From an uncultured Opitutales bacterium (GTDB taxonomy: Bacteria; Verrucomicrobiota; Verrucomicrobiia; Opitutales; Intestinicryptomonadaceae): DNA of 32,000 nucleotides. Below are positions 884-26,735 of the stretch, one piece after another. Below the pieces are notes generated by a model. The model made no database searches, was not told the origin of the DNA, and saw only the letters and a program-made list of their open reading frames with translations. Where the stretch lies: the NCBI GenBank assembly GCA_934660865.1, contig CAKUIA010000006.1:60001-92000 (forward strand), in the 5' to 3' direction. Within the stretch, counting starts at the first letter, position 1; every line of letters starts with the position of its first letter. The position numbers and the translations under genes are program-made.

Positions 884-1615
884 TTATTTATTCTCCGCCT
901 TTTTGCATACTACAACCGAGGCTGGCCTTATAAGCCTGTCGTCCAGTCTGTAGCCCAAACGCACAACGTTCACTATTTTGTTGGCCTCGTGCTTTTCGCT
1001 GTCTATGCACGAAACGGCCTCTTCAAACTTCGGGTCGAACTCGTCGCCCTCGTTGGGATTTATTTCAACAACGCCGTGCTTTTCGAAAATCTGTTTTATT
1101 TGTTTTGCAAGCATTTCAAAGCCCTGCGCCCATGTGGGCGACTCCAAATGCTTTCGGATATTGTCCATAGCCAATGCAAGATTGTCTAAAACGGGAATCA
1201 TATCCTCTACAAACGGTATTACCGCCGACTTTGCAAGCAAAGCCATATCCCTTTGCATTCTGCGCCTGTATGTGTCGAACGACGCAACTTCGCGTATGTA
1301 CAAATCCTTGTTTTTTGCGGCCTCGGCCATTGCAAGCTCCAAATTGGCAAGCAATTCGCCCTCGCGCTGTTTGCATTGGCAGTCGGCGCCATCTTTATGC
1401 TCTTTTTCGCCGTGGCGACATTCGTGCCCGTCGTGATGGTGGCCGTGGCAACATTCGCCGCCCTCTTCGTGTTTGCTATGGTTGCCGCAACAGCAATGCT
1501 CGGCTTGGTCGTGCGAAGCGTTTTCCGCGCCGCATTGCGCCGCGTTTTGCGTGTTTTGGTTGTCTTTGTCGAAGCCGTTTGCGACCCCGTTTTTATTGTT
1601 AAATTCTTCCGTCAT
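884..1615 (-). CDS. grpE: Nucleotide exchange factor GrpE with an atypical Cys/His-rich N-terminal extension
   Basis: 243-aa ORF ending 3 nt upstream of the dnaJ start. GrpE-type core: DLYIREVASFDTYRRRMQRD ... GDEFDPKFEEAV ... VVRLGYRLDDRLIRPASVVV. The N-terminus contains HCCCGNHSKHEEGGECCHGHHHDGHECRHGEKEHKDGADCQC. Confidence 0.9.
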   Translation of the reverse strand: MTEEFNNKNGVANGFDKDNQNTQNAAQCGAENASHDQAEHCCCGNHSKHEEGGECCHGHHHDGHECRHGEKEHKDGADCQCKQREGELLANLELAMAEAAKNKDLYIREVASFDTYRRRMQRDMALLAKSAVIPFVEDMIPVLDNLALAMDNIRKHLESPTWAQGFEMLAKQIKQIFEKHGVVEINPNEGDEFDPKFEEAVSCIDSEKHEANKIVNVVRLGYRLDDRLIRPASVVVCKKAENK

Positions 1616-16719: not shown

Positions 16720-16833
16720 AATTTCCCACTTTTTTTGAAATGGCAGGCTCGCAAGTGCCGTAAAATCGGTGTTTGCGGGCTTTTTTTATTGCGGGAAATC
16801 GGTGGGAAATCGGCAAAATATTTCCCACTTTTG
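16720..16833. repeat. Short repeats upstream of terS (candidate cosB/terS-binding sites)
   Basis: AATTTCCCACTTTT occurs at 16720-16733, and ATTTCCCACTTTT at 16820-16832. Tandem GGGAAATCGG occurs at 16793-16802 and 16804-16813. A related AAAATCGGTG lies at 16762-16771. GTGGGAAA is the reverse complement of TTTCCCAC. Confidence 0.4.
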
Positions 16834-16853
16834 ACAGTTTTCTTTCCTATATG
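16829..16853 (+). repeat. Junction motif copy: TTTTGACA-N14-ATG (terS)
   Basis: TTGACA at 16831-16836, ATG at 16851. No SD. Confidence 0.4.
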
Positions 16854-17465
16854 GACGAAAACATTAAAAACAGGATTCTTGAAGCCAATCTTCAAAATAT
16901 CGCAAAGAAAGTTGCCGCAGGGAAAACTCTCACAAGTTCGGAACGCGCGCTTATCGAAGTGCAAAACGGAGAATCCGAAATTAGCAAAACGTACGCCGAA
17001 TCCATCGTTGAACTTGCGGAGATTCTCGGCGTTTCGCGTAGAACTATCGGTAATTGGCGCAAAATCAAGGGCTCGCCCAAACCTACCGCGAACGGCAAAC
17101 ACAACATTTCCAAATGGCGGCAGTTCATCAAGAAGAACGGATTGAAAGAAGCTGATACCCCAGAAGACGAGGTTTTAAAGTCTCGCAAACTGCTTGCGGA
17201 AGTAAAACAGGCGGAAATAAAGCTGAAAGTGATGGAAGGCACTTATGTGCCGATTGAGAAAGTCCGCGAGGTTTGGACAATGCACATCGGGCAAATCAGG
17301 AACATTCTCGAGAGCCGATTTTTAAACGAACTTCCGCCGATACTTACCACACTCGACGCAATCCAGATTCGCGAGAAAATGCAGGAAGTTTTGGACGAGA
17401 CGTATTCCGCGCTTTCCGTCGCGGCAGAATCAATCAAAGAGCCTGTCGATATTGAAGAATCTTAA
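16851..17465 (+). CDS. Terminase small subunit, lambda Nu1-like architecture (N-terminal HTH plus coiled coil)
   Basis: I prefer ATG 16851 (MDENIKNR...). HTH: IVELAEILGVSRRTIGNWRKIKGSP. Then KWRQFIKKNGL, and a helical segment SRKLLAEVKQAEIKLKVMEGTYVPIEKV...ILESRFLNELPPIL that parallels Nu1 as I recall it. The call rests on motifs and architecture only. Confidence 0.55.
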   Translation: MDENIKNRILEANLQNIAKKVAAGKTLTSSERALIEVQNGESEISKTYAESIVELAEILGVSRRTIGNWRKIKGSPKPTANGKHNISKWRQFIKKNGLKEADTPEDEVLKSRKLLAEVKQAEIKLKVMEGTYVPIEKVREVWTMHIGQIRNILESRFLNELPPILTTLDAIQIREKMQEVLDETYSALSVAAESIKEPVDIEES

Positions 17466-18536: not shown

Positions 18537-18882
18537 ATTTTTCCACATTCTTTGCACCGACGGCGAGAAAGTCCGCTATGAGGGGCGATTCCAATGCTCG
18601 AGCCGAAATGTTGCATACCGACTCTTGCGCGAAAAAGTCGGCAAAAAGAACCTCTACGGACTCAAATACACCATCACTGAATTCCCAATAGAAGTTCTTC
18701 GTGAAATTATAGATTCAATTCTGAATAAAAGACCTCTGCCCGAGGGAGATATTTTAAAGCACAAGACGGTTCAAAGCCCACCGAAACAGCCTCCACAAGT
18801 CTACGCAAATGTTAAAGATATGCGGTATAATCCACACAAGCCGACTCGCTCGACGGTAAAAAGGCGATTGGGGGATTTATGA
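18514..18882 (+). CDS. Hypothetical protein (122 aa)
   Basis: Overlaps the upstream gene by 23 nt. Its stop overlaps the next start (ATGA). No recognised domain. Confidence 0.6.
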   Translation: MLNMPSDRFFHILCTDGEKVRYEGRFQCSSRNVAYRLLREKVGKKNLYGLKYTITEFPIEVLREIIDSILNKRPLPEGDILKHKTVQSPPKQPPQVYANVKDMRYNPHKPTRSTVKRRLGDL

Positions 18883-19295
18883 AATACCTTCTCGACCTAA
18901 ACCAGACGCTTGTCGACCGCGAGAAAGACGCGCCGAGAATACGACCGTTTGAGCGTCAAATAGAACGCGAGACATACCGCCAGTGGCTCGTTGAAATCTT
19001 GCGGGATAGCTATGTAATCCTGATAACGGCGCGCCCCGTAAAATACAAACAAATGACGCTCGAACGGATTTTGGCTCTCACAAATTGGCAGCCTCGGGAA
19101 GCATATTTCGCGGAAATAAAAACGCTCCCGCACCTAAAAAAAGAATATCTCTTGCGCAAATACATACTTCCAAGATTTAAGCCCGACGAACTTTTCGGAA
19201 TAGAAAGCAACCCCAAAACCCGCACGATATATTCAAATTACGGAATTGCGTCCGCTCCCGCCATCGACGAAAACGGCGTTAAAATATCGCTTTAA
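18879..19295 (+). CDS. Conserved hypothetical protein, paralog A (weak HAD-like motifs)
   Basis: 138 aa. The sequence MKYLLDLNQTLV ... RQIERETYRQWLVEILRDSYVILITARPVKYK ... FGIESNPKTR is, by eye, more than half identical to 21449-21883. DLNQT resembles HAD motif I (DxDxT), with Asn at the second acidic position. Confidence 0.7.
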   Translation: MKYLLDLNQTLVDREKDAPRIRPFERQIERETYRQWLVEILRDSYVILITARPVKYKQMTLERILALTNWQPREAYFAEIKTLPHLKKEYLLRKYILPRFKPDELFGIESNPKTRTIYSNYGIASAPAIDENGVKISL

Positions 19296-19321
19296 TTTTG
19301 ACACTTCCGCCGTTATATATG
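19294..19321 (+). repeat. Junction motif copy: AATTTTGACA-N15-ATG (ParB-like gene)
   Basis: TAATTTTGACACTTCCGCCGTTATATATGG. Near-identical to the copy at 22712-22741. Confidence 0.45.
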
Positions 19322-19957
19322 GCAGAAGACAAAGCACGCATTTTGGCGGACGGAATTGAAGTTTGGTGCGCCTACGACAAACTCGTAAAGGTTGACGAAC
19401 TTATTCCCCACCCGAAAAATCCCAACACCCACCCGCAAAACCAGATAAAGATTCTGGCGCAGAATATCCGCTACCACGGTTGGCGGCACCCGATTGTGGT
19501 TTCAAAACTTTCTGGCTACATTGTGGCTGGACACGGCAGACTCGAAGCCGCGAAAGAATTGGGCGTTTCAATCGTCCCCGTAGAATTTCAAAAATTTTCT
19601 TCCGAAGACAACGAACTTGCCGTTCTTGTCGGCGACAACCGCTTGGCGGAGCTTTCGAGCATAGACCTAAACGGGCTTCAAGACATCGTAGACGGTTTCA
19701 AGGAGACGAGCTTCGATACAATCTTGGCAGGTTTTGAACCAGCCGATTTGGACGCTCTGCTTGACGAAAAAACTCCCGATTTTGAAGACGAAGCCGAAAG
19801 GGAGCTTACCCAATCGGAAGTTACAATTCAGGCTGGGAACTATCGATTCCGCATAAGTCAGGAAGATTTCGGTGTATGGATTGACAAATTAAAGCAGGAA
19901 GTCGGCTTCGACAAGGAATCGGTAATTGCCGAACTTCGCAGGAGGCTTTCCATATGA
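19319..19957 (+). CDS. ParB-like N-terminal (ParB/Srx-fold) domain protein
   Basis: I prefer ATG 19319 over the TTG 19298 in the track. ParB-like core: ELIPHPKNPNTHPQNQIKILAQNIRYHGWRHPIVVSKLSGYIVAGHGRLEAAKELG. No SD; preceded by the junction motif. Confidence 0.8.
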   Translation: MAEDKARILADGIEVWCAYDKLVKVDELIPHPKNPNTHPQNQIKILAQNIRYHGWRHPIVVSKLSGYIVAGHGRLEAAKELGVSIVPVEFQKFSSEDNELAVLVGDNRLAELSSIDLNGLQDIVDGFKETSFDTILAGFEPADLDALLDEKTPDFEDEAERELTQSEVTIQAGNYRFRISQEDFGVWIDKLKQEVGFDKESVIAELRRRLSI

Positions 19958-21465
19958 TAAAAATTGAGCCTCTTTCGGCGGTAAACCCGTCGACCTACAA
20001 CCCGCGAACCGCCGACCCGAAGCGGCTTGATTTGATTGAGCTTTCGCTTCGCAAATTGGGATTCATTGCGCCGATATATGCCGACGCAAACGGCGAAATT
20101 CTTTCGGGGCACCAACGCCATTTTGTGGCAACGCGAATGGGCGTAAAAAACGTTCCAGTTTTCAGGATTCCGCCGATGGAATTGGAGAAGCGCAAGGCGT
20201 TGAACATTGTCTTTAACCGCGCCACTAACGACGGCGACATTTGCCAGACACCAGAAAAGGCTAAGCGCATTCTGGAAAGTCTAAATCTCTCGGAACTCGC
20301 CGAAAATATTCAAGACAAGGAGTTGGAGAGCAGAGACTTTTTCAGATGCGCCTACCCTGCGAAGGTGTCGGTTGCAAAACTTTGCAGGATAAATTCGGGA
20401 CGATGGATTCAATACGCAAAGAGCATTGCCAGAACACTTCGCAAGGCTGGAATTGTTATGCCGATTGTCTGCACGCCAGACGGCAAAGTTATAAACGGAA
20501 TCGGAAGACTCGAAATGCTTGCCGAACTCAAAGTAGATACTTGCGATGTGGTCTACATTTCCGAAGACGAGGCGAAATTTGCCGACGCTATGATGAACCT
20601 GCTTACGATGGAGTTCGACATTCACACGCGCTACGCCGATTTGCTCCGCTATAATTCGTTCCGACGCGCCCGCAGAGTTCGCGAAGAATTGGGACACGGC
20701 TTTGTGTTCGCCGTTCACGGGAATAAGCCCTGCCACAGTTTCGATATTTTCGATAAGTCGCAACAGGCGAAATGGCGCAAGGAGCACGGAAATTCAATTC
20801 TCGACTTCGGCGCGGGACACCTTACGGAGACGAACATTTTGAAGTCTGCGGGCTTTGATTGTGTTCCGTTTGAGCCGTATCACATAAGCGTTTCCGAAAT
20901 CGACAAGGAAAAGTCGCTTGAGATTTCGAGGGAATTTCTAAACGCCGTCGCAAATGGCAAGGAATTTACAAGCATATTCATTTCAAGCGTGTTAAACTCA
21001 GTTCCTTTCGCAAGGGATAGAGAACACATAGTTTGCATTTGCGCCGCGTTGTGTCGTCCGTTTACAAAACTCTACGCCTGCGCTTCGTCGACGGCAGAAA
21101 CCGGTTATAGGCAGGTAAACGGCAAGGCATTTCATAATGAATCGAATGCGGGCAATATAGCGTTTCGCCTTGAATACGAATCGGGAGTTCGCATTGGCGA
21201 CTTTCAGGACAAGCCGAAAGTCCAGAAATACCACACAAAAAAGGAATTCTACGAACTCTTTTCGCCGTTTTTTAGAAACATTCAGATTTCGGAAATGACG
21301 GGCAACGTAAACGCCAAATGCGAAAACGTCAGACGCATTCCGTGGGAACGCCTCGAAGAAGCGTTGAGATTTGAATTCAATCTGCCTTATCCCGACGGCT
21401 CTCGTATGGGATTGGTAGACGAGGCAATTTCGGCATTCAAACACCGCTATGAAATACTTGGTTGA
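19954..21465 (+). CDS. Fusion protein: two ParB-like domains plus a C-terminal class-I SAM-dependent methyltransferase domain
   Basis: First ParB-like domain: NPRTADPKRLDLIELSLRKLGFIAPIYADANGEILSGHQRHFVA. Second, degenerate copy: MPIVCTPDGKVINGIGRLEMLAELK. Methyltransferase motif I ILDFGAGHLTE, then FEPY and IFISSVLNSVP. No (D/N/S)PP(Y/F) amino-methyltransferase motif is seen. Confidence 0.8.
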   Translation: MIKIEPLSAVNPSTYNPRTADPKRLDLIELSLRKLGFIAPIYADANGEILSGHQRHFVATRMGVKNVPVFRIPPMELEKRKALNIVFNRATNDGDICQTPEKAKRILESLNLSELAENIQDKELESRDFFRCAYPAKVSVAKLCRINSGRWIQYAKSIARTLRKAGIVMPIVCTPDGKVINGIGRLEMLAELKVDTCDVVYISEDEAKFADAMMNLLTMEFDIHTRYADLLRYNSFRRARRVREELGHGFVFAVHGNKPCHSFDIFDKSQQAKWRKEHGNSILDFGAGHLTETNILKSAGFDCVPFEPYHISVSEIDKEKSLEISREFLNAVANGKEFTSIFISSVLNSVPFARDREHIVCICAALCRPFTKLYACASSTAETGYRQVNGKAFHNESNAGNIAFRLEYESGVRIGDFQDKPKVQKYHTKKEFYELFSPFFRNIQISEMTGNVNAKCENVRRIPWERLEEALRFEFNLPYPDGSRMGLVDEAISAFKHRYEILG

Positions 21466-21883
21466 TTTAAACTATACGCTTGTTGGAAATTCCCCGAGAT
21501 GGGGAGAACCGCGCATTACGCCGTTTTCAAGGCAGATTGAGCGGGAGACATACCGCCAGTGGCTTGTGGATTTCTTGCGGGATAAATACGCAATCCTCAT
21601 TACTGCGCGACCTGCCAAATACAAAGAACAAACGCTTGCGAGGATTTTCTCTCAGACAAATTGGCACCCGCAGGAAACATATTTTGCGGAGATTTCCGCT
21701 ACTCCACCCGAAATCAAAGAAGACCTATTGTTGCGGTATATCTTCCCGAAACACGGCAAAAATGGCGCGGATTTCTTCGGCATTGAAAGCAATCCGAAAA
21801 CGCGGGCAATGTATGGAAAACATGATATAGAATCGCTATGTTTTGCCGATTTTAAGAAACAAACCGTTGACAAATTCGGATAA
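21449..21883 (+). CDS. Conserved hypothetical protein, paralog B of 18879-19295
   Basis: 144 aa: MKYLVDLNYTLV ... RQIERETYRQWLVDFLRDKYAILITARPAKYK ... FGIESNPKTR. It shares a 20-nt identical DNA stretch (GAGACATACCGCCAGTGGCT) with paralog A. Confidence 0.7.
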   Translation: MKYLVDLNYTLVGNSPRWGEPRITPFSRQIERETYRQWLVDFLRDKYAILITARPAKYKEQTLARIFSQTNWHPQETYFAEISATPPEIKEDLLLRYIFPKHGKNGADFFGIESNPKTRAMYGKHDIESLCFADFKKQTVDKFG

Positions 21884-22066: not shown

Positions 22067-22714
22067 ATGAATTCTTCGCTCATACTTACTGGCTATCACG
22101 GTTGCGATATAACTACGGCATATGACGTTGTTCTGGACGGACGTTTGAATCCGAGTCGAAACACATACGACTGGCTTGGGAATGGCGTTTATTTTTGGGA
22201 AGACGATATTGAAAGAGCCTATGACTGGGCAAAATACGTTTCGGCGAATCCCAAACTTTTTCACAACAAAATAGAACATCCTTGTGTTGTCGGCGCGGTA
22301 ATCGAGTTGAAAAACCATCTTGATTTGACTATTTCAAGCGCAAGGCAGGTCGTAAGAGAAGCATACAACAACATTTCGGAAATCTACGCCGAAAAGGGTT
22401 TGGAATTGCCCAAAAATCGCAAATCGTCAAAAGGCGATGACTATTTGAAGATTCGCGAACTCGACTGCTTGGTTATAAATTCGATAAACGAGTTTAGAAA
22501 AGCCAAGAAAGAACCGCTTATTGATGTCGTTCGAGCTCCGTTTTTGGAGGGTGAACCTCTATACGCAGGGGCTTCTTTTATGAACGAGACTCATATCCAA
22601 ATTTGCGTAAAAGATCTCTCCGCAATTAGGGGATATTTTATTCCGCCGCAATTCAAGAGTATGTTTAAGAACGCAAAAATTCCGAATTGGGATAAGGTTC
22701 TCGGGGAATATTAA
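22067..22714 (+). CDS. DUF3990-like protein (unknown function)
   Basis: 215 aa. The ordered motifs GYHGC, DWLGNGVYFWEDDIERAYDWAK, IDVVRAPFLEGEP and ETHIQICV resemble the DUF3990 pattern I recall (YHGS ... DFGxGFY ... A..WA ... D-h-V-x-G-P ... QI). Confidence 0.55.
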   Translation: MNSSLILTGYHGCDITTAYDVVLDGRLNPSRNTYDWLGNGVYFWEDDIERAYDWAKYVSANPKLFHNKIEHPCVVGAVIELKNHLDLTISSARQVVREAYNNISEIYAEKGLELPKNRKSSKGDDYLKIRELDCLVINSINEFRKAKKEPLIDVVRAPFLEGEPLYAGASFMNETHIQICVKDLSAIRGYFIPPQFKSMFKNAKIPNWDKVLGEY

Positions 22715-22740
22715 ATTTTGACATTCCGCCGTCTTGTATG
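22713..22740 (+). repeat. Junction motif copy: AAATTTTGACA-N14-ATG (CmoA-like gene)
   Basis: TAAATTTTGACATTCCGCCGTCTTGTATGG. TTGACA at 22718-22723, ATG at 22738. Confidence 0.45.
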
Positions 22741-23433
22741 GAATTGCATACGGACGACAGGATTATTTCGCGACAGAGCAACTGGGTGTTCGACGAACAC
22801 GTCGCGCCCGAATTCGACAAGCACGTCAGAAAGAGCGTGCCCAATTACGTTCACGTTCAGGATTTGGCGGAGACATTTTCCGACTGGTTCACATACCCCA
22901 ATTCGACTGTAATCGACTTCGGGGCTTCCACAGGCGAAACCCTGCGCAGGATAAAACGCCGCCATTCGAAAACGATCCACCTCATAGGCTACGACAATTC
23001 GCAGGCGATGATAAATCAGGCGAAAACAAAAGGCGTAGACATCATTTTTGCCGACCTCGAAAAGCCGTTTGTTCTGCCCAATTTTTCCTACGCAGTTTCG
23101 CTTTACACATTGCAATTCCTGCGCCCAGACGCGCGGAACGCGCTGTTAAAGCGCATATTCCACAGCCTTGAAAATTGCGGCGGAATGTTTGTCGTCGAAA
23201 AAGTTCTCGGCTCAACATCGCAAATGCAGGACATTTTGCAACAGCTCTATTGGGAAATGAAGGCAAAGAACGGCTTTTCGTCAGAACAAATCATCAACAA
23301 GGCGAAAGCCCTGCGCGGGTGTATGTATCCCAAAACCGTAGCCGACAACGAAGCGGAATTCCGCGCAATCGGGTTCAATTCGGAAATAGTTTTCAAAGAA
23401 TCGCAGTTCTGCGGTTGGCTGCTTACGAAATGA
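22738..23433 (+). CDS. CmoA-family SAM-dependent enzyme (carboxy-SAM synthase-like)
   Basis: 231 aa with end-to-end similarity to E. coli CmoA as I remember it. Matching segments: NWVFDEHVAPEFDKHVRKSVPNY, VIDFGASTGE, GYDNSQAMINQAK, YTLQFLRPDARNALLKRIF, GGMFVVEKV, KAKNGFSSEQII, and the final FKESQFCGWLL. Its stop overlaps the terL start (ATGA). Confidence 0.75.
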   Translation: MELHTDDRIISRQSNWVFDEHVAPEFDKHVRKSVPNYVHVQDLAETFSDWFTYPNSTVIDFGASTGETLRRIKRRHSKTIHLIGYDNSQAMINQAKTKGVDIIFADLEKPFVLPNFSYAVSLYTLQFLRPDARNALLKRIFHSLENCGGMFVVEKVLGSTSQMQDILQQLYWEMKAKNGFSSEQIINKAKALRGCMYPKTVADNEAEFRAIGFNSEIVFKESQFCGWLLTK

Positions 23434-25211
23434 AGCTTCTTCGGGATATTCTCAAAGACGCTTGGACGCCCGCCGACCGCCGAGAGCCTTGGCGTTGGTG
23501 CGAAGACCATATAAAAAGCATTCCGTATTCGCCGCTTCCAGGACCGTTCAGAAGCGAAAACTCGCCGTGGATTCGCGAAGTTATGGAGGCAATCGTTGAC
23601 CCGAAAATCCGCCTTGTCTCGATTATCGCCGCCGTCCAAAGCTCGAAGACTACAAGTCCCGAGCTTACGCTTTGCTACATAATAGCCAACCTCCCAGGAC
23701 CTTGCCTTTGGCTCGACCAGACGGACGAAGACGCAAAAGACGAGTCGGAAAGCCGCCTGCAAAAGCTTTTTGAGAGCTGCGAGCCGGTAAAAAAGCTATT
23801 TCCAAAGAACAAAAATAAACAGCGCAACTGCACAATCCACTTTTCAAACGGAATGACGCTTTGGCTGCTGGGAGCGTATAACAAGACCAATCTCCAACGC
23901 CGTTCAATCCGCTGGCTTTTCGGAGACGAAACTTGGCGATGGCCAGTCGGACATATGGCGGAAGCGGAGGCAAGAACTACGGCTTTCGGGTGGCTCGGCA
24001 AATGCGTGTTTATGAGTCAAGGCGGAGAGGAGAACGACGACACCCACCGCAAATTTGAAACAACCGATATGCGCGAATGGCACTACAAGTGTCCCAAATG
24101 CGGCAAATACATTCCCTACAAGTGGGAAAACATCGAGTGGGACGACGACTGCAAAGACGAAAACGGCGAATACGACTTTTCAAAAATCAACCATTCAACA
24201 GCCTTGAAATGTCCCGAATGCGGGGAGTATTTTGAGGATTCCGACAGAATGAGGCGCATTCTCAACAAGGACGGAAAGTTTATCGCGCTCAATCCGAATG
24301 CTTCAAAAGAAAACGTGGGCTTCCATTGGAATGCGCTCGCTTCGATGAGTTGGGGCAAGCTTGCCGAGCTTTACCTTCGCGCGAAAATTGCCGCAAGAAA
24401 GGGCGACAGCTCTTTGCTGCAACAATTCTACCAGAAACGCCTTGCTCTTGCTTGGAGGGAATTTGCCGAAGACTACCGCCTTGAAATCGCCTCTGGCAGC
24501 TATAATTCGGGGGACGTTTGGGATGAGGAAGCGGGCTTCAACAAGCTCGGTGAAATCATCGCCCCGCCTTTTGCCGAAAACGAGGTTATCGCGCCGCTTC
24601 GCATAATGTCGGTTGATGTTCAGATGAACTGCTTTTACTTGGTTGTCCGCGCTTGGAGCATTAACGGTTCGAGTCGTCTTCTATGGCACGAAAAGGTACT
24701 GACGTGGGAAGACATCGAGGAAATCCAAAAGCGTTTTAAAATTTTGGACAACCTTGTATTTGTCGACGCGGGGTATAATTCGTTTGAAGTCTACAAGCAT
24801 TGCGGGGAGCGGAATTGGATTGCGCTTATGGGCGACAACAGGGCGAACTTCTTTCACAGACTTCCGAACGGCAAGACGGTTTTGCGCTTTTACTCTCCCG
24901 TAAAGCACATATTTATTTCGCGCTACGTTAAGTGCCGTATGCACTTTTGGAGCAACCTCAACGTAAAAGACACTTTGGCGAGAATCAGGCGAAACCAGAA
25001 TCCTGCCGACGGCGCAACTTGGGAAGTGCCGACGGATATTTCCGAAGACTACTTAAAGCAAATGGAGTCCGAACACCGCATTAAAAAGGGCAACTCGTGG
25101 ATATGGGAGCAAATCGGCAACCGCCCCAACCACTACCTCGACTGCGAAGCTATGAACTGCGCAGGAGCGTTGATGTTGAAGATTGTGGGGAACAATGGTT
25201 TATATAGTTAA
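23430..25211 (+). CDS. terL: Terminase large subunit, lambda GpA family
   Basis: Start ATG 23430 (MKLLRDILKDAW...). The upstream ORF extension overlaps the CmoA-like gene and is rejected. GpA-type features: REPWRWCEDHIKSIPYSPLPGPFRSENSPWIREVMEAI, an ATPase segment AAVQSSKTT, and a zinc-ribbon YKCPKCGKY ... LKCPECGEYF. Confidence 0.9.
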   Translation: MKLLRDILKDAWTPADRREPWRWCEDHIKSIPYSPLPGPFRSENSPWIREVMEAIVDPKIRLVSIIAAVQSSKTTSPELTLCYIIANLPGPCLWLDQTDEDAKDESESRLQKLFESCEPVKKLFPKNKNKQRNCTIHFSNGMTLWLLGAYNKTNLQRRSIRWLFGDETWRWPVGHMAEAEARTTAFGWLGKCVFMSQGGEENDDTHRKFETTDMREWHYKCPKCGKYIPYKWENIEWDDDCKDENGEYDFSKINHSTALKCPECGEYFEDSDRMRRILNKDGKFIALNPNASKENVGFHWNALASMSWGKLAELYLRAKIAARKGDSSLLQQFYQKRLALAWREFAEDYRLEIASGSYNSGDVWDEEAGFNKLGEIIAPPFAENEVIAPLRIMSVDVQMNCFYLVVRAWSINGSSRLLWHEKVLTWEDIEEIQKRFKILDNLVFVDAGYNSFEVYKHCGERNWIALMGDNRANFFHRLPNGKTVLRFYSPVKHIFISRYVKCRMHFWSNLNVKDTLARIRRNQNPADGATWEVPTDISEDYLKQMESEHRIKKGNSWIWEQIGNRPNHYLDCEAMNCAGALMLKIVGNNGLYS

Positions 25212-26437
25212 ATAATTTCTCCTCGAAAATAATCTTTTATTATTTTTATATATTTATTTGGGATTCCTAGCCTTTCTCTAAACAAATTTTTCACAGGTAC
25301 AGGATTTGGATTTAATATGATTATATTTGGATATTTAGTCTTTTTGCAAAAAGCCTTTTTTAATAAATCAATTGCTCTTATATCAGTGATGGGGAAAGAG
25401 TATCCAATTACATATATTGATTCTGCTTTACTTAAATCAGATTCAGCATATTCCCATAAATTTTTAAATAATTTGCCCCAAAAATTATAACTTTTATTTT
25501 TGACTGGAGGGATAATCAGTGGAGTACTTGGCATTCCATCACTAGGATAATTACTTTCAGGAATCCAAGGAAATTTCGGTCTTACCCTGATAATAAGCCG
25601 ATCTTTAGGTGCTGTTTTTCCTTTGTCTGATAAAATATTTGGGGGATAATATCCCATAGAAAAAGGAGCATATCCTTCCATATATCTACCCGCGTACGCA
25701 GGATAAGGTTTAGTTGCGTATTCATATATCCAAACTGAATCATTTGGAGATTCTTGTATTAGTTTAAAATCTTTTGCTTCTTGATCATAGTACATAGGAG
25801 AAGTGAGCCAATTTGTTGAGCCATGTAACTTTATTAATTTTGGGGATTGTTTGAAGCTGTTTTGAGGCAACAGCCATTTATCTCGATATATACCACAAGG
25901 CGAAAAACCATATCCAAAGTCTGTTTCCCAATCAGTATCTTCTTGTAAGGCTCGATCCAATAAAGTATCCCAATTAAATGTTATTATAGTATCATCTGTA
26001 TTTATTTTTTTTAAAAATAATCTATGTGCTTTTGATGTTGGTCCATTTTGAATTTCATTTATAATCGATGAAAAAAAATAAACCAATTGTTGATAAGTTT
26101 TTGTCAATATAAGCAACTCGCTGGAAATATGTTCGCAATTTTGATCCTTTTCAATTAAGGTAAGCATTTTATATTCAATCGCAGAGTGAATTTTCTCAAT
26201 ATCTAAATCTCCTTTAAAAACTGATTCGATAGGAACATTTCTGGTCTTATGTAAATAATTCACGATGTCACCGATTATAACCCAAGGGTTTTGTGATATA
26301 TTTAATTTTTCAAAGGTAGAAAAAACCTCTGTTGCCAATGGCATTTTTTGACCAGATAAGGATTCACCATAAGACTTAGATGCTCCAGCTCCCAATATAT
26401 ATACATTCATTTCATTATTTAAGTTCAATGGATACAT
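25208..26437 (-). CDS. SIR2-like (SIR2_2 / ThsA-type NADase fold) protein, standalone, AT-rich insert
   Basis: Ordered signature: VYILGAGASKSYG; IITFNWDTLLDRAL; LIKLHGSTNW; IYVIGYSFPITDIRAIDLL. The start is ambiguous (ATG at 26485, 26437 or 26410). There are 20 G+C in line 25261-25320. Confidence 0.8.
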   Translation of the reverse strand: MYPLNLNNEMNVYILGAGASKSYGESLSGQKMPLATEVFSTFEKLNISQNPWVIIGDIVNYLHKTRNVPIESVFKGDLDIEKIHSAIEYKMLTLIEKDQNCEHISSELLILTKTYQQLVYFFSSIINEIQNGPTSKAHRLFLKKINTDDTIITFNWDTLLDRALQEDTDWETDFGYGFSPCGIYRDKWLLPQNSFKQSPKLIKLHGSTNWLTSPMYYDQEAKDFKLIQESPNDSVWIYEYATKPYPAYAGRYMEGYAPFSMGYYPPNILSDKGKTAPKDRLIIRVRPKFPWIPESNYPSDGMPSTPLIIPPVKNKSYNFWGKLFKNLWEYAESDLSKAESIYVIGYSFPITDIRAIDLLKKAFCKKTKYPNIIILNPNPVPVKNLFRERLGIPNKYIKIIKDYFRGEII

Positions 26438-26451
26438 GTAAATTACTCGAA

Positions 26452-26480
26452 TTTTTTTGACAAGTTTTATTCTTATCATG
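26452..26480 (+). repeat. Junction motif copy: TTTTTTTGACA-N15-ATG (gpW-like gene)
   Basis: TTGACA at 26457-26462, ATG at 26478. No SD. Confidence 0.4.
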
Positions 26481-26735
26481 TCCAATTACATTTACACACG
26501 CGGGTATACTGTGGCGGAGCTTGAGGCTTTGCTTGTTCGGGTAAAAGCCGAGCGCGAAAAGTATCTTCAATCGGCTTCCGATAGCGGAAGCTCGTATTCA
26601 CGCATCGCGCTTTCGGAAATCGAGAAGAAGTTCAACGGCATAATGGACGCGTTGGAGCTTCTCGCGCCCGAAAAATACCCCAAAACAAACCGCCGAATTT
26701 CCCTTAGCGGCGTAGTAGGAGGAGTTATCCAATGA
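26478..26735 (+). CDS. gpW-like head-tail joining protein (by position and size)
   Basis: 85 aa from ATG 26478. It lies between terL and portal, as lambda W does. Its stop overlaps the portal start (ATGA). No SD; the junction motif lies upstream. Confidence 0.5.
   Translation: MSNYIYTRGYTVAELEALLVRVKAEREKYLQSASDSGSSYSRIALSEIEKKFNGIMDALELLAPEKYPKTNRRISLSGVVGGVIQ

Follow-up and report, generated by a model that had tools for sequence, protein, structure and literature searches.

CmoA, the carboxy-SAM (Cx-SAM) synthase, serves tRNA in bacteria, and in the E. coli enzyme the arginine that pairs with the Cx-SAM carboxylate is R199 (PMC3663124). The tRNA carboxymethyltransferase CmoB selects Cx-SAM through the basic residues K91 and R315 (PMC4482062), which with Y200 make up its carboxylate triad. 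Phage CmoA was tied to DNA modification only in 2025, through a cytosine-C5 enzyme: it makes Cx-SAM for DNA carboxymethylation by CmoX, which selects Cx-SAM through R350 and is unrelated to the enzyme described below (PMC12783734). In Synechococcus phage S-B43 the products of the CmoA-CmoX-CmoY system are 5-carboxymethylcytosine and its glycine amide; E. coli CmoA can supply CmoX, and contigs with CmoX often carry a ParBc protein (PMC12783734). The same authors raised depletion of SAM by CmoA as a possibility, and their search found no CmoA-linked candidates for a non-C5 (N6-A or N4-C) carboxymethyltransferase (PMC12783734), which is the gap addressed here.

Proteins of the ParB fold are a second element of the locus studied here. 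ParB-CTPase folds bind ATP, CTP or GTP and form substrate-binding modules in SerK and Srx, and ParB fusions to SAM-dependent methyltransferases bound ATP (PMC12704722). A phage thymine dioxygenase (5mYOX176) needs its ParB (ParB176) for action on dsDNA (PMC13229309). The combination of ParB with Methyltransf_23 is a phage-enriched architecture that has been catalogued without a function (PMC12704722), and the view taken in the initial annotation of this DNA, that phage ParB-methylase fusions carry N6/N4 methylases, was therefore too narrow.

We analysed a window of 32,000 nucleotides from a gut Opitutales bacterium, in which a cassette that is part of a prophage lies directly ahead of the DNA-packaging genes. 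At its centre is a fusion of two ParB domains with a divergent class-I methyltransferase-like domain. On sequence grounds this fusion is at present the leading candidate for a phage DNA carboxymethylating enzyme of a second kind, one that does not act on C5 of cytosine. That the fusion is a ParB-assisted, Cx-SAM-dependent carboxymethyltransferase acting on phage DNA, a reading in which both target and chemistry are predicted, has in our estimate about an even chance of being correct.

Gene order and linkage of the cassette

The features of the cassette and its surroundings are collected in Table 1. The genes for the stand-alone partner ParB1 and for the fusion are both on the + strand, and the translational coupling reported for them is present as a 4-base overlap (ATGA) of the ParB1 stop and the fusion start at 19954-19957, with AGGAGG at 19941-19946 on its 5' side. 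A second ATGA, at 23430, joins the stop of the CmoA-like gene to the start of the large terminase subunit (TerL) gene, the cassette genes being translationally chained into the packaging operon. The small terminase gene lies upstream of the cassette in the window and between the CmoA-like gene and TerL in most relatives.

Table 1. Features of the cassette and neighbouring packaging genes, in window coordinates
Feature	Position	Strand	Basis
Small terminase subunit-like gene (HTH)	16773..17465	+	PHROG 57 (small terminase), E 9.8e-16
HAD-like small protein, copy a, 138 aa	18879..19295	+	PHROG 32036, E 6e-31
ParB1, stand-alone ParB/Srx-fold partner	19319..19957	+	Pfam ParB_N; PHROG 498 and 620
Fusion gene	19954..21465	+	
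Fusion ParB domain 1, residues 1-100	19954..20253	+	Family profile vs Noc/ParB structures, E 6e-6; Foldseek Noc/ParB matches; invariant columns
Fusion ParB domain 2, residues 128-218, degenerate duplicate	20335..20607	+	hhalign vs domain 1; model
Arg-rich segment before Rossmann core, residues 219-270	20608..20763	+	Conservation; model pLDDT 61-79, lower confidence
Class-I methyltransferase-like domain, residues 271-503	20764..21465	+	AlphaFold2; Foldseek PDB; Pfam Methyltransf_23; conservation
Codon of R356, proposed ligand of the extra Cx-SAM carboxylate	21019..21021	+	Residue pattern vs CmoA-less relatives
HAD-like small protein, copy b, 144 aa; overlaps fusion gene end by 17 bases	21449..21883	+	PHROG 32036, E 5.5e-37
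CmoA-like protein, 231 aa, predicted carboxy-SAM synthase	22738..23433	+	phmmer vs E. coli CmoA structure 4gek, E 9e-26; TIGR00740
Large terminase subunit (TerL), gpA type	23430..25211	+	Pfam GpA_ATPase 1.9e-39, GpA_nuclease 2.3e-20

Linkage was assessed in 98 related loci whose downstream flank spans 4 kb or more. ParB1 is present in every one of them (98/98), a CmoA-like gene in 96 and a HAD-like gene in 94. CmoA is kept in all 15 clusters at 70% identity and in all 11 at 60%, only four of which have the gpA-type terminase, and the linkage spans three CmoA clades and several terminase types. Two loci are without CmoA, one a truncated prophage and the other, L145, a clean loss of CmoA with the rest of the cassette intact. 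Isolated phages show the linkage as well, namely Gordonia Evaa, Aeromonas HJ05 and Pseudomonas SM1/PaMx31. In verrucomicrobial phages with a fusion 63-68% identical to that of the window, the CmoA-like proteins are either 58-66% or about 30% identical, a sequence pattern indicating that CmoA was replaced there and not lost. The initial annotation had named the fusion as candidate transferase for an unusual DNA modification by virtue of the CmoA-like gene. The linkage (96/98 loci, 15/15 clusters) upholds that pairing, while the DNA substrate and the carboxymethyl group stay at the level of prediction.

The window ORFs that were scanned yielded no C5-methylase domain, nor a kinase, dNMP-modifying enzyme or polymerase as needed for a pre-replicative route. 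Across the 98 related loci a C5-methylase match occurs in only four, three with an ordinary GYPCQ and not the SPPC of CmoX and the fourth a 125-residue fragment, and no CmoY-type ligase was detected.

Judged by its sequence, the CmoA-like gene encodes a credible carboxy-SAM synthase. It scores 132.6 bits on TIGR00740 (model positions 9-233 of 239), below the equivalog cut-off of 193.3; the verified CmoA of phage S-B43, identical to that of S-B05, scores lower at 115.6, so this cut-off excludes known active phage members. The cofactor-contact residues Y39, D62, G64, S66, D89, D117, F137 and E164 are all present, and the alignment as a whole conserves Y39, D62, G64, S66, D/E89, D117, F137, E/D164, K165 and K198. 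At the columns of the carboxylate-binding arginine the window protein has A199/R203, its Arg standing at the same column as in the biochemically verified S-B43 CmoA, which has E199/R203 (PMC12783734). N132 is absent, as it is in CmoX-associated phage CmoAs. For 23 cassette CmoA-like proteins and those of phages SM1 and HJ05 the product is less certain, because they have no Arg at column 199 or 203.

The two HAD-like copies are 54% identical to each other. Motif I reads DLNQT in copy a (D-L-N-x-T), that is DxNxT and not DxDxT, the second Asp being replaced by Asn, and T52, K90 and E113-S-N115 are conserved in the alignment; HAD phosphatases have both aspartates in motif I, DxDx(T/V), with S/T in motif II, K in motif III and an acidic motif IV. 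Pfam HAD matches only one of 14 members, at 0.013, a sequence comparison with solved structures gave no match, and the homologue of copy a in Gordonia phage Evaa is annotated as 'phosphatase'. The HAD-like protein belongs to the same branch as the proposed module and has no place in the chemistry proposed for it.

ParB1 and the fusion protein

The assignment of the first gene to the ParB/Srx fold agrees with Pfam ParB_N (PF02195), which it matches with 30.8 bits against a cut-off of 26.3, and the stretch quoted from it, GHGRLEAAKELG, begins at residue 78 of the 219-aa form. The length of 219 aa holds if translation starts at TTG 19298, but from the start at ATG 19319 that the initial annotation itself gave the protein has 212 aa. 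ParB1 shares 30% identity with the first ParB domain of the fusion (E 4e-6) and weakly matches SerK. The fusion is not a chance ORF, since it is a full-length member of PHROG 5475 (E 3.5e-102) and has 1040 homologues among the candidates scored. It is 503 aa long as described, and every motif quoted for it was located: SGHQRHFVA at residue 51, NGIGRLEMLAELK at 181, ILDFGAGHL at 282, FEPY at 306 and IFISSVLNSVP at 341.

ParB domain 1 keeps all three nucleotide-binding boxes (N16-P17-R18, G52-H53-Q54-R55 and N84..F87-N88-R89), whose residues are invariant or nearly so in the family, and NTP binding is predicted from this pattern of sequence only. Its match to PF02195 amounts to only 20 bits in the window protein, and 24 of 31 family members match. 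The degenerate second copy noticed earlier is genuine. Profile-profile alignment of residues 1-100 with 128-218 (hhalign) gives a probability of 98.2% and an E-value of 4e-14 over 81 columns, and in the AlphaFold2 model the order of strands and helices is the same as in domain 1; of the nucleotide-binding boxes only the box II residues G182 and R185 are retained. PADLOC MTase_II, a type II DNA methyltransferase model, aligns through its ParB portion with the N-terminus of the fusion and nowhere else in it, and PHROG 498 likewise matches only there.

The AlphaFold2 model (pLDDT 83 for the full-length fusion, pLDDT 85.7 and pTM 0.87 for the C-terminal part) confirms the C-terminal Rossmann methyltransferase fold. 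A likeness to small-molecule class-I enzymes had also been proposed, and the best PDB matches found by Foldseek are indeed all small-molecule class-I methyltransferases (E 2e-5 to 5e-4), the matches being modest at TM-scores of 0.4-0.59 and 8-17% identity. Among the top fold matches there is neither a DNA nor an RNA methyltransferase, and the fusion has no evident target-recognition domain. The further suggestion of a CmoB-type enzyme found no support: none of the Pfam or NCBIfam models of CmoB type matches the protein, and the 50 best-matching folds include no CmoB structure. Methyltransf_23 (PF13489) scores 16.5 bits against a cut-off of 27 in the window protein, over residues 276-351 only, and matches 16 of 31 family members at E up to 0.01 (best 5.8e-7). 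The motifs of the domain are motif I, L283-D-F-G-A-G288, with the acidic E307, then S345-V-L-N-S-V-P-F352 and D355-R356 after strand 4, and further K422, Q424, K425 and E474-F-x-L-P478. By eye, the S-V-L-N-S-V-P-F segment lines up with what we take to be the 'vlhh' segment of the Methyltransf_11/23-type consensus.

Two established kinds of DNA methyltransferase were considered and rejected. An N6/N4 amino-methyltransferase is ruled out, as no catalytic tetrapeptide follows strand 4, where S-V-L-N-S-V-P-F stands, and the fusion has no Pfam match to the N6-adenine/N4-cytosine families (PF01555, PF02384, MT-A70); the claimed absence of a (D/N/S)PP(Y/F) motif extends to the whole fusion, in which the regular expression [DNS]PP[YFWH] matches nowhere. 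A C5-cytosine methyltransferase or CmoX is ruled out by the lack of a PF00145 match, of an SPPC/PC loop and of an essential Cys. The sole conserved Cys, C132, sits in the stretch that separates the two ParB domains, and 12 of 98 members have Val in its place; the one 'ENV', at residue 457, lies outside any C5-methylase motif context.

In a family with a mean identity of 30%, D284, G286, G288 and E307 are conserved at 93-100%. Conservation is 91-100% for the glycine loop, the acidic residue that binds ribose and the motif following strand 4. These invariant cofactor-binding motifs argue for an enzyme and against a mere recognition factor. They thereby bear on the idea that the ParB1/fusion pair is mainly a terminase-associated factor for recognising or handling DNA, for example by marking or loading at the packaging site, with a non-catalytic methyltransferase-like domain. 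Such a role would suit the position of the pair directly upstream of TerS/TerL of unrelated terminase families (gpA, Terminase_3, Terminase_6N), even without CmoA, and its translational coupling into the packaging operon. We nevertheless consider it highly improbable, as the window has a TerS-like gene apart from the pair and one was detected in 65 of 98 related loci, a protein without catalytic activity would hardly account for so strict a linkage to a cofactor synthase, and conservation of the cofactor site to this degree is what is expected of a working enzyme.

Cofactor, acceptor and proposed mechanism

A sister subfamily of the fusion, in Bacteroidota phages, keeps ParB1, the fusion and the position beside the terminase, and no CmoA-like or HAD-like gene was found in its loci (80 near-identical and four diverse). 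Its members carry a precomputed PF13489 label and, together with a Brochothrix phage protein, share SVLNSV, Q424 and E474-F-x-L-P with the main family, from which the subfamily differs at P351, F352, D355, R356 and K422, conserved positions beside the cofactor site. Residue 356 is R in 97 of 98 CmoA-linked members and E in 94 or Q in 13 of 108 sister proteins, a charge reversal just after motif IV; the Brochothrix protein has Q at this position and works without a CmoA gene nearby. Brochothrix, as a Gram-positive host, is expected to be without CmoA. The arginines R232, R237 and R238 ahead of the Rossmann core are conserved at 98%, 86% and 82% in the main family, whereas the sister proteins have E/K, I and Q at these positions. 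On this residue pattern the sister subfamily is a natural control for the proposed Cx-SAM selectivity of the CmoA-linked family, the argument for R356 resting on two CmoA-less lineages only and on a position in sequence with no modelled complex behind it.

The motifs shared with these CmoA-less relatives could also mean that the fusion, like the sisters in all probability, simply methylates DNA with SAM, as a methyltransferase of an unusual class, with the CmoA-like protein serving some other end, such as removal of SAM to counter host defences that depend on it, or tRNA modification. Locus L145, which has kept the remaining cassette without CmoA, would fit, as would the possibility of SAM depletion already raised (PMC12783734). 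This strikes us as improbable given the retention of CmoA in 96 of 98 loci and in three clades, by replacement and not loss, and given the subfamily-specific basic residues that adjoin the cofactor site. In the characterised loci of cyanophage S-B05/S-B43, Staphylococcus phage F1 and Streptomyces phage TurkishDelight, moreover, CmoA adjoins a transferase using its product, and a host CmoA could cover L145, as E. coli CmoA does for CmoX.

Under the preferred reading, Cx-SAM-dependent carboxymethylation of phage DNA, a temperate phage would modify its DNA with a module of the late operon that varies the CmoA-CmoX scheme. The CmoA-like enzyme would, by homology, turn SAM and prephenate into Cx-SAM. 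The C-terminal transferase domain of the fusion would then bind Cx-SAM, as gene linkage and the subfamily-specific residues suggest, holding the extra carboxylate with R356 and possibly also with an Arg-rich lid (R232, R237, R238), and would move the carboxymethyl group onto a heteroatom of a phage DNA base. Selection of Cx-SAM by a basic residue has precedents in CmoB and CmoX. Cytosine C5 would not serve as the target, since the fusion lacks the Cys-dependent machinery. By analogy, the first ParB domain, its degenerate copy and the coupled ParB1 may together bring the enzyme onto dsDNA or activate it there, shortly before or during packaging.

Cx-SAM could also be used on an acceptor other than DNA, namely a nucleotide held by the ParB/Srx domain, a packaging-machinery protein, or host tRNA or rRNA, in which last case the fusion would be functionally analogous to CmoB. 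The close fold matches, all small-molecule methyltransferases, point this way, as do the weak SerK match of ParB1, the nucleotide-binding and substrate-module roles of ParB-CTPase folds (PMC12704722), the tRNA role of bacterial CmoA (PMC3663124) and the co-inherited HAD-like protein, which would suit nucleotide or phospho-substrate chemistry. We think a non-DNA acceptor unlikely on the whole, since characterised phage ParB fusions or neighbours accompany DNA-modifying enzymes, a type II DNA methyltransferase model matches the N-terminus of the fusion through its ParB portion, the genes are chained into the packaging operon, and the window ORFs scanned include no enzymes of a pre-replicative route.

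The fusion family occurs in prophages of Verrucomicrobiota, Alphaproteobacteria, Cyanobacteria and Vibrio and in cultured Pseudomonas, Gordonia and Aeromonas phages. A bolder proposal, which we advance tentatively and on balance doubt, is that the ParB-ParB-transferase family forms a second, evolutionarily independent and widespread class of natural DNA carboxymethyltransferases. Drawing on Cx-SAM made by the phage, these would place carboxymethyl on a ring or exocyclic heteroatom (e.g. N6 of adenine, N4 of cytosine, N7/O6 of guanine), giving a base not yet described in nature, with the help of a ParB nucleotide switch around packaging. If true, the natural DNA bases would gain a new member, the phage-enriched ParB and Methyltransf_23 architecture (PMC12704722) would acquire a function, and the recurrence of ParB-fold proteins beside DNA-modifying enzymes would become easier to understand; a possible use is as a new enzyme for putting carboxyl handles on DNA. 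The family is a concrete candidate with a testable selectivity residue, R356, and a CmoA-less sister subfamily as natural negative control, and its presence in cultured phages (the Pseudomonas SM1/PaMx31 group, Gordonia Evaa, Aeromonas HJ05) opens the question to experiment.

Comparison with known systems

The S-B43 system resembles the present one in that a phage CmoA homologue adjoins a methyltransferase-fold enzyme, in the x199/R203 configuration of CmoA and in the frequency of ParB-domain neighbours. In the window, by contrast, the transferase is unrelated to C5-cytosine methyltransferases, has no DNA_methylase Pfam match and is fused to two ParB domains; the amide ligase is missing and a HAD-like gene is added. 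In Streptomyces phage TurkishDelight two ParB-like genes stand beside CmoX-type, CmoY-type and CmoA-like genes. CmoB, the tRNA ho5U34 carboxymethyltransferase of the Methyltransf_9 family, is likewise a class-I Rossmann enzyme that acts downstream of CmoA and uses Cx-SAM via basic residues, and it is the functional model for our proposal (PMC4482062). Unlike the fusion it has no ParB domains and acts on tRNA, and the two share no sequence or family match, CmoB lying outside the top 50 fold matches.

The sister fusions, such as gp52 of Bacteroides phage BS-TP3, have the same layout, an overlapping ParB1 gene followed by a fusion of ~470-500 aa directly upstream of TerS/TerL, and the same N-P-R, G-H-Q-R, D-F-G-x-G, E307, S-V-L-N-S-V, Q424 and E-F-x-L-P. 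They differ from the window protein in a second ParB domain without G182 and R185, in E/Q for R356, D/N-S for P351-F352 and Y/F for K422, and are only about 24% identical to it, over the methyltransferase part alone. The ParB-fused N6/N4 DNA methyltransferases (PF02195 with PF01555) share an N-terminal ParB/Srx domain of the same subtype and a phage or prophage origin, often beside packaging genes, but carry an amino-methyltransferase with (D/N/S)PP(Y/F) where the window fusion is Methyltransf_23-like and without the motif. The 5mYOX176/ParB176 pair differs in being an Fe/2OG dioxygenase with an unfused ParB and no CmoA; like the present locus it encodes a stand-alone ParB with a post-replicative DNA-modifying enzyme, and it is the model for the role proposed for ParB1.

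The cassette and its ParB domains

The window is a prophage in which host GrpE at the left is followed by a replication module, a TerS-like gene, the cassette, a gpA-type TerL, a lambda-type portal and a protease. The cassette itself runs HAD-like a, ParB1 (gene 1, a ParB/Srx protein), the ParB-ParB-transferase fusion (gene 2), HAD-like b, an apparent moron, the CmoA-like gene and TerL, and a 98% near-identical locus occurs in an Opitutales MAG from Hadza gut samples. ParB1 and the fusion have an ATGA in common (19954-19957), with AGGAGG eight bases upstream; more ATGA overlaps lie at 18879 and 23430, and a terminator search inside the cassette returned none that was convincing. Both open reading frames were confirmed on the forward strand where the initial annotation had placed them, and the peptide motifs that it quoted were all recovered in place. 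Its length of 219 aa for gene 1 holds from the TTG start, but is 212 aa from the ATG that it had itself chosen.

Coordinates of features in the window and, where a locus is named, in loci compared with it
Feature	Location	Strand	Basis or remark
Host GrpE	884-1615		window left
Two large ORFs, 369 and 398 aa	5628-7899	-	GC 34%; near presumed prophage left end
Terminator-like hairpin	16745-16782	+	16 pairs then T run; 37% GC stretch
TerS-like	16773-17465
HAD-like a	18879-19295	+	paralogue of HAD-like b
Gene 1, ParB1	ATG 19319 (or TTG 19298) to 19957	+	ORF; Pfam ParB_N above threshold
Gene 2, fusion, 503 aa	19954-21465	+	ORF; full-length PHROG 5475 member, E 3.5e-102
HAD-like b	21449-21883	+	paralogue of HAD-like a
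215-aa protein	22067-22714	+	PHROG 14664
CmoA-like	22738-23433
SIR2-like	25208-26485	-	36% GC block; PADLOC SIR2 1.9e-10
CmoA-like of L004	L004 5019-5711
Bacteroides phage BS-TP3 gp52	L088 5260-6681		CmoA-less fusion
Streptomyces phage TurkishDelight cluster	L007 1671-6699		genome end

PHROG 5475 is a family without assigned function. A profile built from 54 members of the fusion family hit Noc and ParB structures in their N-terminal domains (E 6e-6), and in the AlphaFold2 model of the fusion (pLDDT 83) two modules with identical strand and helix order precede a Rossmann domain. Comparing the profiles of residues 1-100 and 128-218 gave 98.2% probability (E 4e-14), so what had been described as a degenerate ParB copy is a genuine internal duplication. 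The first domain retains all three ParB nucleotide-binding boxes, of which G182 and R185 are the sole residues kept in the second. Matches of ~2093 nt for 500 residues in many loci suggested a ~590-bp insertion (intein or intron) in the fusion genes, which was rejected because the search had joined the adjacent ParB1 match to that of the fusion. In PADLOC the ParB pair belongs to no known defence system; its one link there is the likeness of its ParB domains to a type II methylase model.

The 215-aa protein encoded between HAD-like b and the CmoA-like gene has a weak PADLOC match to PD-T4-9_A (E 4.5e-6); since the gene was seen only in the window prophage and in L090, a relative with 98% identity, it would appear to be a defence-type moron within the cassette. 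The SIR2-like gene separates TerL from the portal gene and is probably a defence moron carried by the prophage, and the 369-aa and 398-aa ORFs gave neither a Pfam nor a PADLOC match. The hairpin is strong and runs across the TTG from which the TerS-like ORF was called; the true start of TerS may lie further downstream. In the window and its closest relatives TerS precedes the cassette; in the 63-68% relatives (loci L013-L087 compared) it lies between the CmoA-like gene and TerL. Either the cassette or TerS has therefore shifted within the packaging operon.

Linkage of the fusion to CmoA-like genes

We scanned the ORFs of 80 loci from IMG/VR and 80 from species-representative genomes with profiles, and counted linkage in the 98 loci that extend 4 kb or more downstream. 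Patterns for the wider genome search came from a narrower alignment (A6), the 98-sequence alignment A5 being too diverse. ParB1 was present in 98/98 loci, a CmoA-like gene, the predicted carboxy-SAM (Cx-SAM) synthase, in 96, a HAD-like gene in 94 and a gpA-type TerL in 86. The two loci without CmoA are a truncated prophage and an otherwise syntenic phage that has lost it. When the fusion proteins were clustered, CmoA was present in 15/15 clusters at 70% identity and 11/11 at 60%, and the gpA terminase in just 4/11 at 60%. That ParB1 and the fusion form a non-catalytic packaging factor strikes us as very improbable.

Hosts of these loci include Verrucomicrobiota, Alphaproteobacteria, Cyanobacteria, Vibrio, Planctomycetota and Chloroflexota, among others, and in isolated phages of three unrelated hosts ParB1, the fusion and the CmoA-like gene are mutually adjacent. 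Fusion identity to the window is 42% in Gordonia phage Evaa, where the annotated terminase lies directly 3' of the cassette, 33% in Aeromonas phage HJ05 and 34% in the Pseudomonas SM1/PaMx31 group. The CmoA-likes form three clades. Verrucomicrobial phages with fusions 63-68% identical to that of the window carry CmoA-likes that are either 58-66% or ~30% identical; the pattern is thus one of CmoA replacement and not of loss. C5-methylases matched in only 4/98 loci, three with an ordinary GYPCQ motif and not the SPPC of CmoX, the C5-cytosine carboxymethyltransferase of the Synechococcus phage S-B43 system, and the fourth a short fragment. The scanned window ORFs contained no C5-methyltransferase domain, and the 98 loci no ligase of the type of CmoY, the amide ligase of that system.

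We compared the CmoA-like genes of the window, L004 and the cassette loci. [quoted passage not shown] The cofactor contacts given for E. coli CmoA (PMC3663124) are conserved in the window protein. Its carboxylate-pairing Arg is in column 203, not 199, as in the S-B43 enzyme, and the majority of cassette CmoA-likes share R199/E203 with E. coli. Across the CmoA family this Arg occupies either E. coli column 199, paired with E203, or column 203, where position 199 is then A, E or Q; in an alphaproteobacterial/Vibrio clade and in phages SM1 and HJ05 neither column holds Arg.

From homology, linkage and residue patterns we infer the cofactor, substrate and product, and as the most likely reading, held with about as much doubt as confidence, we suggest that the fusion would carboxymethylate phage DNA late in infection, using Cx-SAM and assisted by ParB. 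An ordinary SAM-dependent DNA methylase, with CmoA serving elsewhere, seems to us improbable beside a linkage found in every cluster.

The transferase domain and a candidate carboxylate ligand

Modelled alone (AlphaFold2), the C-terminal domain gave pLDDT 85.7 and pTM 0.87. The top PDB hits are without exception small-molecule class-I methyltransferases, such as 2p8j, 3sm3, PsmD, PH0226, XrdM, GSMT and ToxA, with E 2e-5 to 5e-4, TM-scores 0.4-0.57 and identities 8-17%. The domain had been proposed to be of a small-molecule or CmoB-type class; the former agrees with these folds, but CmoB is absent from the top 50 PDB matches, among which there is also no DNA methyltransferase. The amino-methyltransferase motif is missing as reported, [DNS]PP[YFWH] having no match anywhere in the 503 residues, and the post-strand-4 segment, S-V-L-N-S-V-P-F..D-R, is by inspection what we take to be the 'vlhh' segment of Methyltransf_11/23-type enzymes and not an NPPY loop.

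Methyltransf_23 is the only Pfam methyltransferase family touched by the window fusion (16.5 bits, threshold 27), and matches 16/31 fusion-family members. The domain family is narrow: of 1.84 billion cluster representatives, only 359 matched at E ≤ 1e-3. Among the 150 matches listed, most are ~500 aa and carry the domain in their C-terminal half, the shorter ones being fragment-like. The cofactor-binding features D284, G286, G288 and E307 are 93-100% conserved at a family mean identity of 30%. C132, the single conserved cysteine, was rejected as a C5-type nucleophile because it is Val in 12/98 members. Against the CmoA family, hhalign aligned the domain collinearly but at only 5.8% probability, and the alignment was not used as evidence.

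A fusion using Cx-SAM on a non-DNA acceptor would also fit the small-molecule-like fold, the ParB domains as nucleotide binders and the presence of a HAD-like gene in the cassette; we regard this as possible, if rather doubtful. The two HAD-like genes flank the ParB pair and are 54% identical to each other. Since their motif I is DxNxT, not DxDxT, their products may not be classical phosphatases. A relaxed Pfam scan of the family gave one weak HAD match, and its profile against PDB sequences gave noise only.

A sister subfamily of fusions, exemplified by BS-TP3 gp52, occurs in Bacteroidota phages. Its fusions have the same architecture, are again preceded by an overlapping ParB1 gene and lie directly upstream of TerS/TerL; where assignable, the terminases are of other families (Terminase_3, Terminase_6N). 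From 165 IMG/VR stretches encoding a relative, 80 at least 99% identical were kept; CmoA-like and HAD-like genes are absent from these 80 near-identical loci and from four diverse metagenomic ones, the HAD-like family being bound to the CmoA-linked branch. The sister fusion (proteins P0271-P0390) abounds in human-gut metagenomes, with 2157 member sequences in cluster P0271 by itself.

Common to both subfamilies are N-P-R, G-H-Q-R, D-F-G-x-G, E307, S-V-L-N-S-V, Q424 and E-F-x-L-P. P351, F352, D355, R356 and K422 of the CmoA-linked subfamily are D/N, S, A/D, E/Q and Y/F in the sister, and R232, R237 and R238 are E/K, I and Q. A Brochothrix phage relative, of a type that our IMG/VR search did not find, is also without CmoA and has Q at position 356. 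CmoB picks Cx-SAM via basic residues K91 and R315, which hold the extra carboxylate (PMC4482062), and CmoX does so via R350 (PMC12783734). Because of these precedents and the E/Q of CmoA-less relatives, R356, directly after motif IV, is our specific candidate for the Cx-SAM carboxylate ligand, the sequence contrast coming from two CmoA-less lineages.

Relation to known carboxymethylation systems

Phage CmoA, CmoX and CmoY are established, with frequent ParBc neighbours of unassigned role, and the same study found no CmoA-associated adenine-N6 or cytosine-N4 carboxymethyltransferase candidates (PMC12783734). ParB-CTPase with Methyltransf_23 has been catalogued, by architecture alone, as a phage-enriched fusion, and ParB folds can bind ATP, CTP or GTP (PMC12704722); a phage-encoded ParB-like protein has been shown to switch on thymine dioxygenase activity towards dsDNA (PMC13229309). 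Our literature search found no paper tying the ParB-ParB-transferase fusion to CmoA, and natural N- or O-carboxymethyl bases in phages did not appear in it, only chemical lesions. The titles and abstracts searched for modified or restriction-resistant DNA in Samunavirus/PaMx31 phages held nothing relevant.

Streptomyces phage TurkishDelight has two ParB-like genes with a CmoX-type SPPC C5-methylase, a glutamine-amidotransferase-domain protein and a CmoA-like gene in one cluster, apparently an actinophage counterpart of the CmoA-CmoX-CmoY system accompanied by ParB proteins. ParB1 resembles the ParB-like proteins of the CmoX-bearing Streptomyces phage in a generic way only (E 0.04-0.06), and we therefore assert no specific orthology between them. 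If the fusion is a Cx-SAM-dependent DNA carboxymethyltransferase, it would be a variant of the CmoA-CmoX system with a different target atom, since its transferase is unrelated to CmoX.
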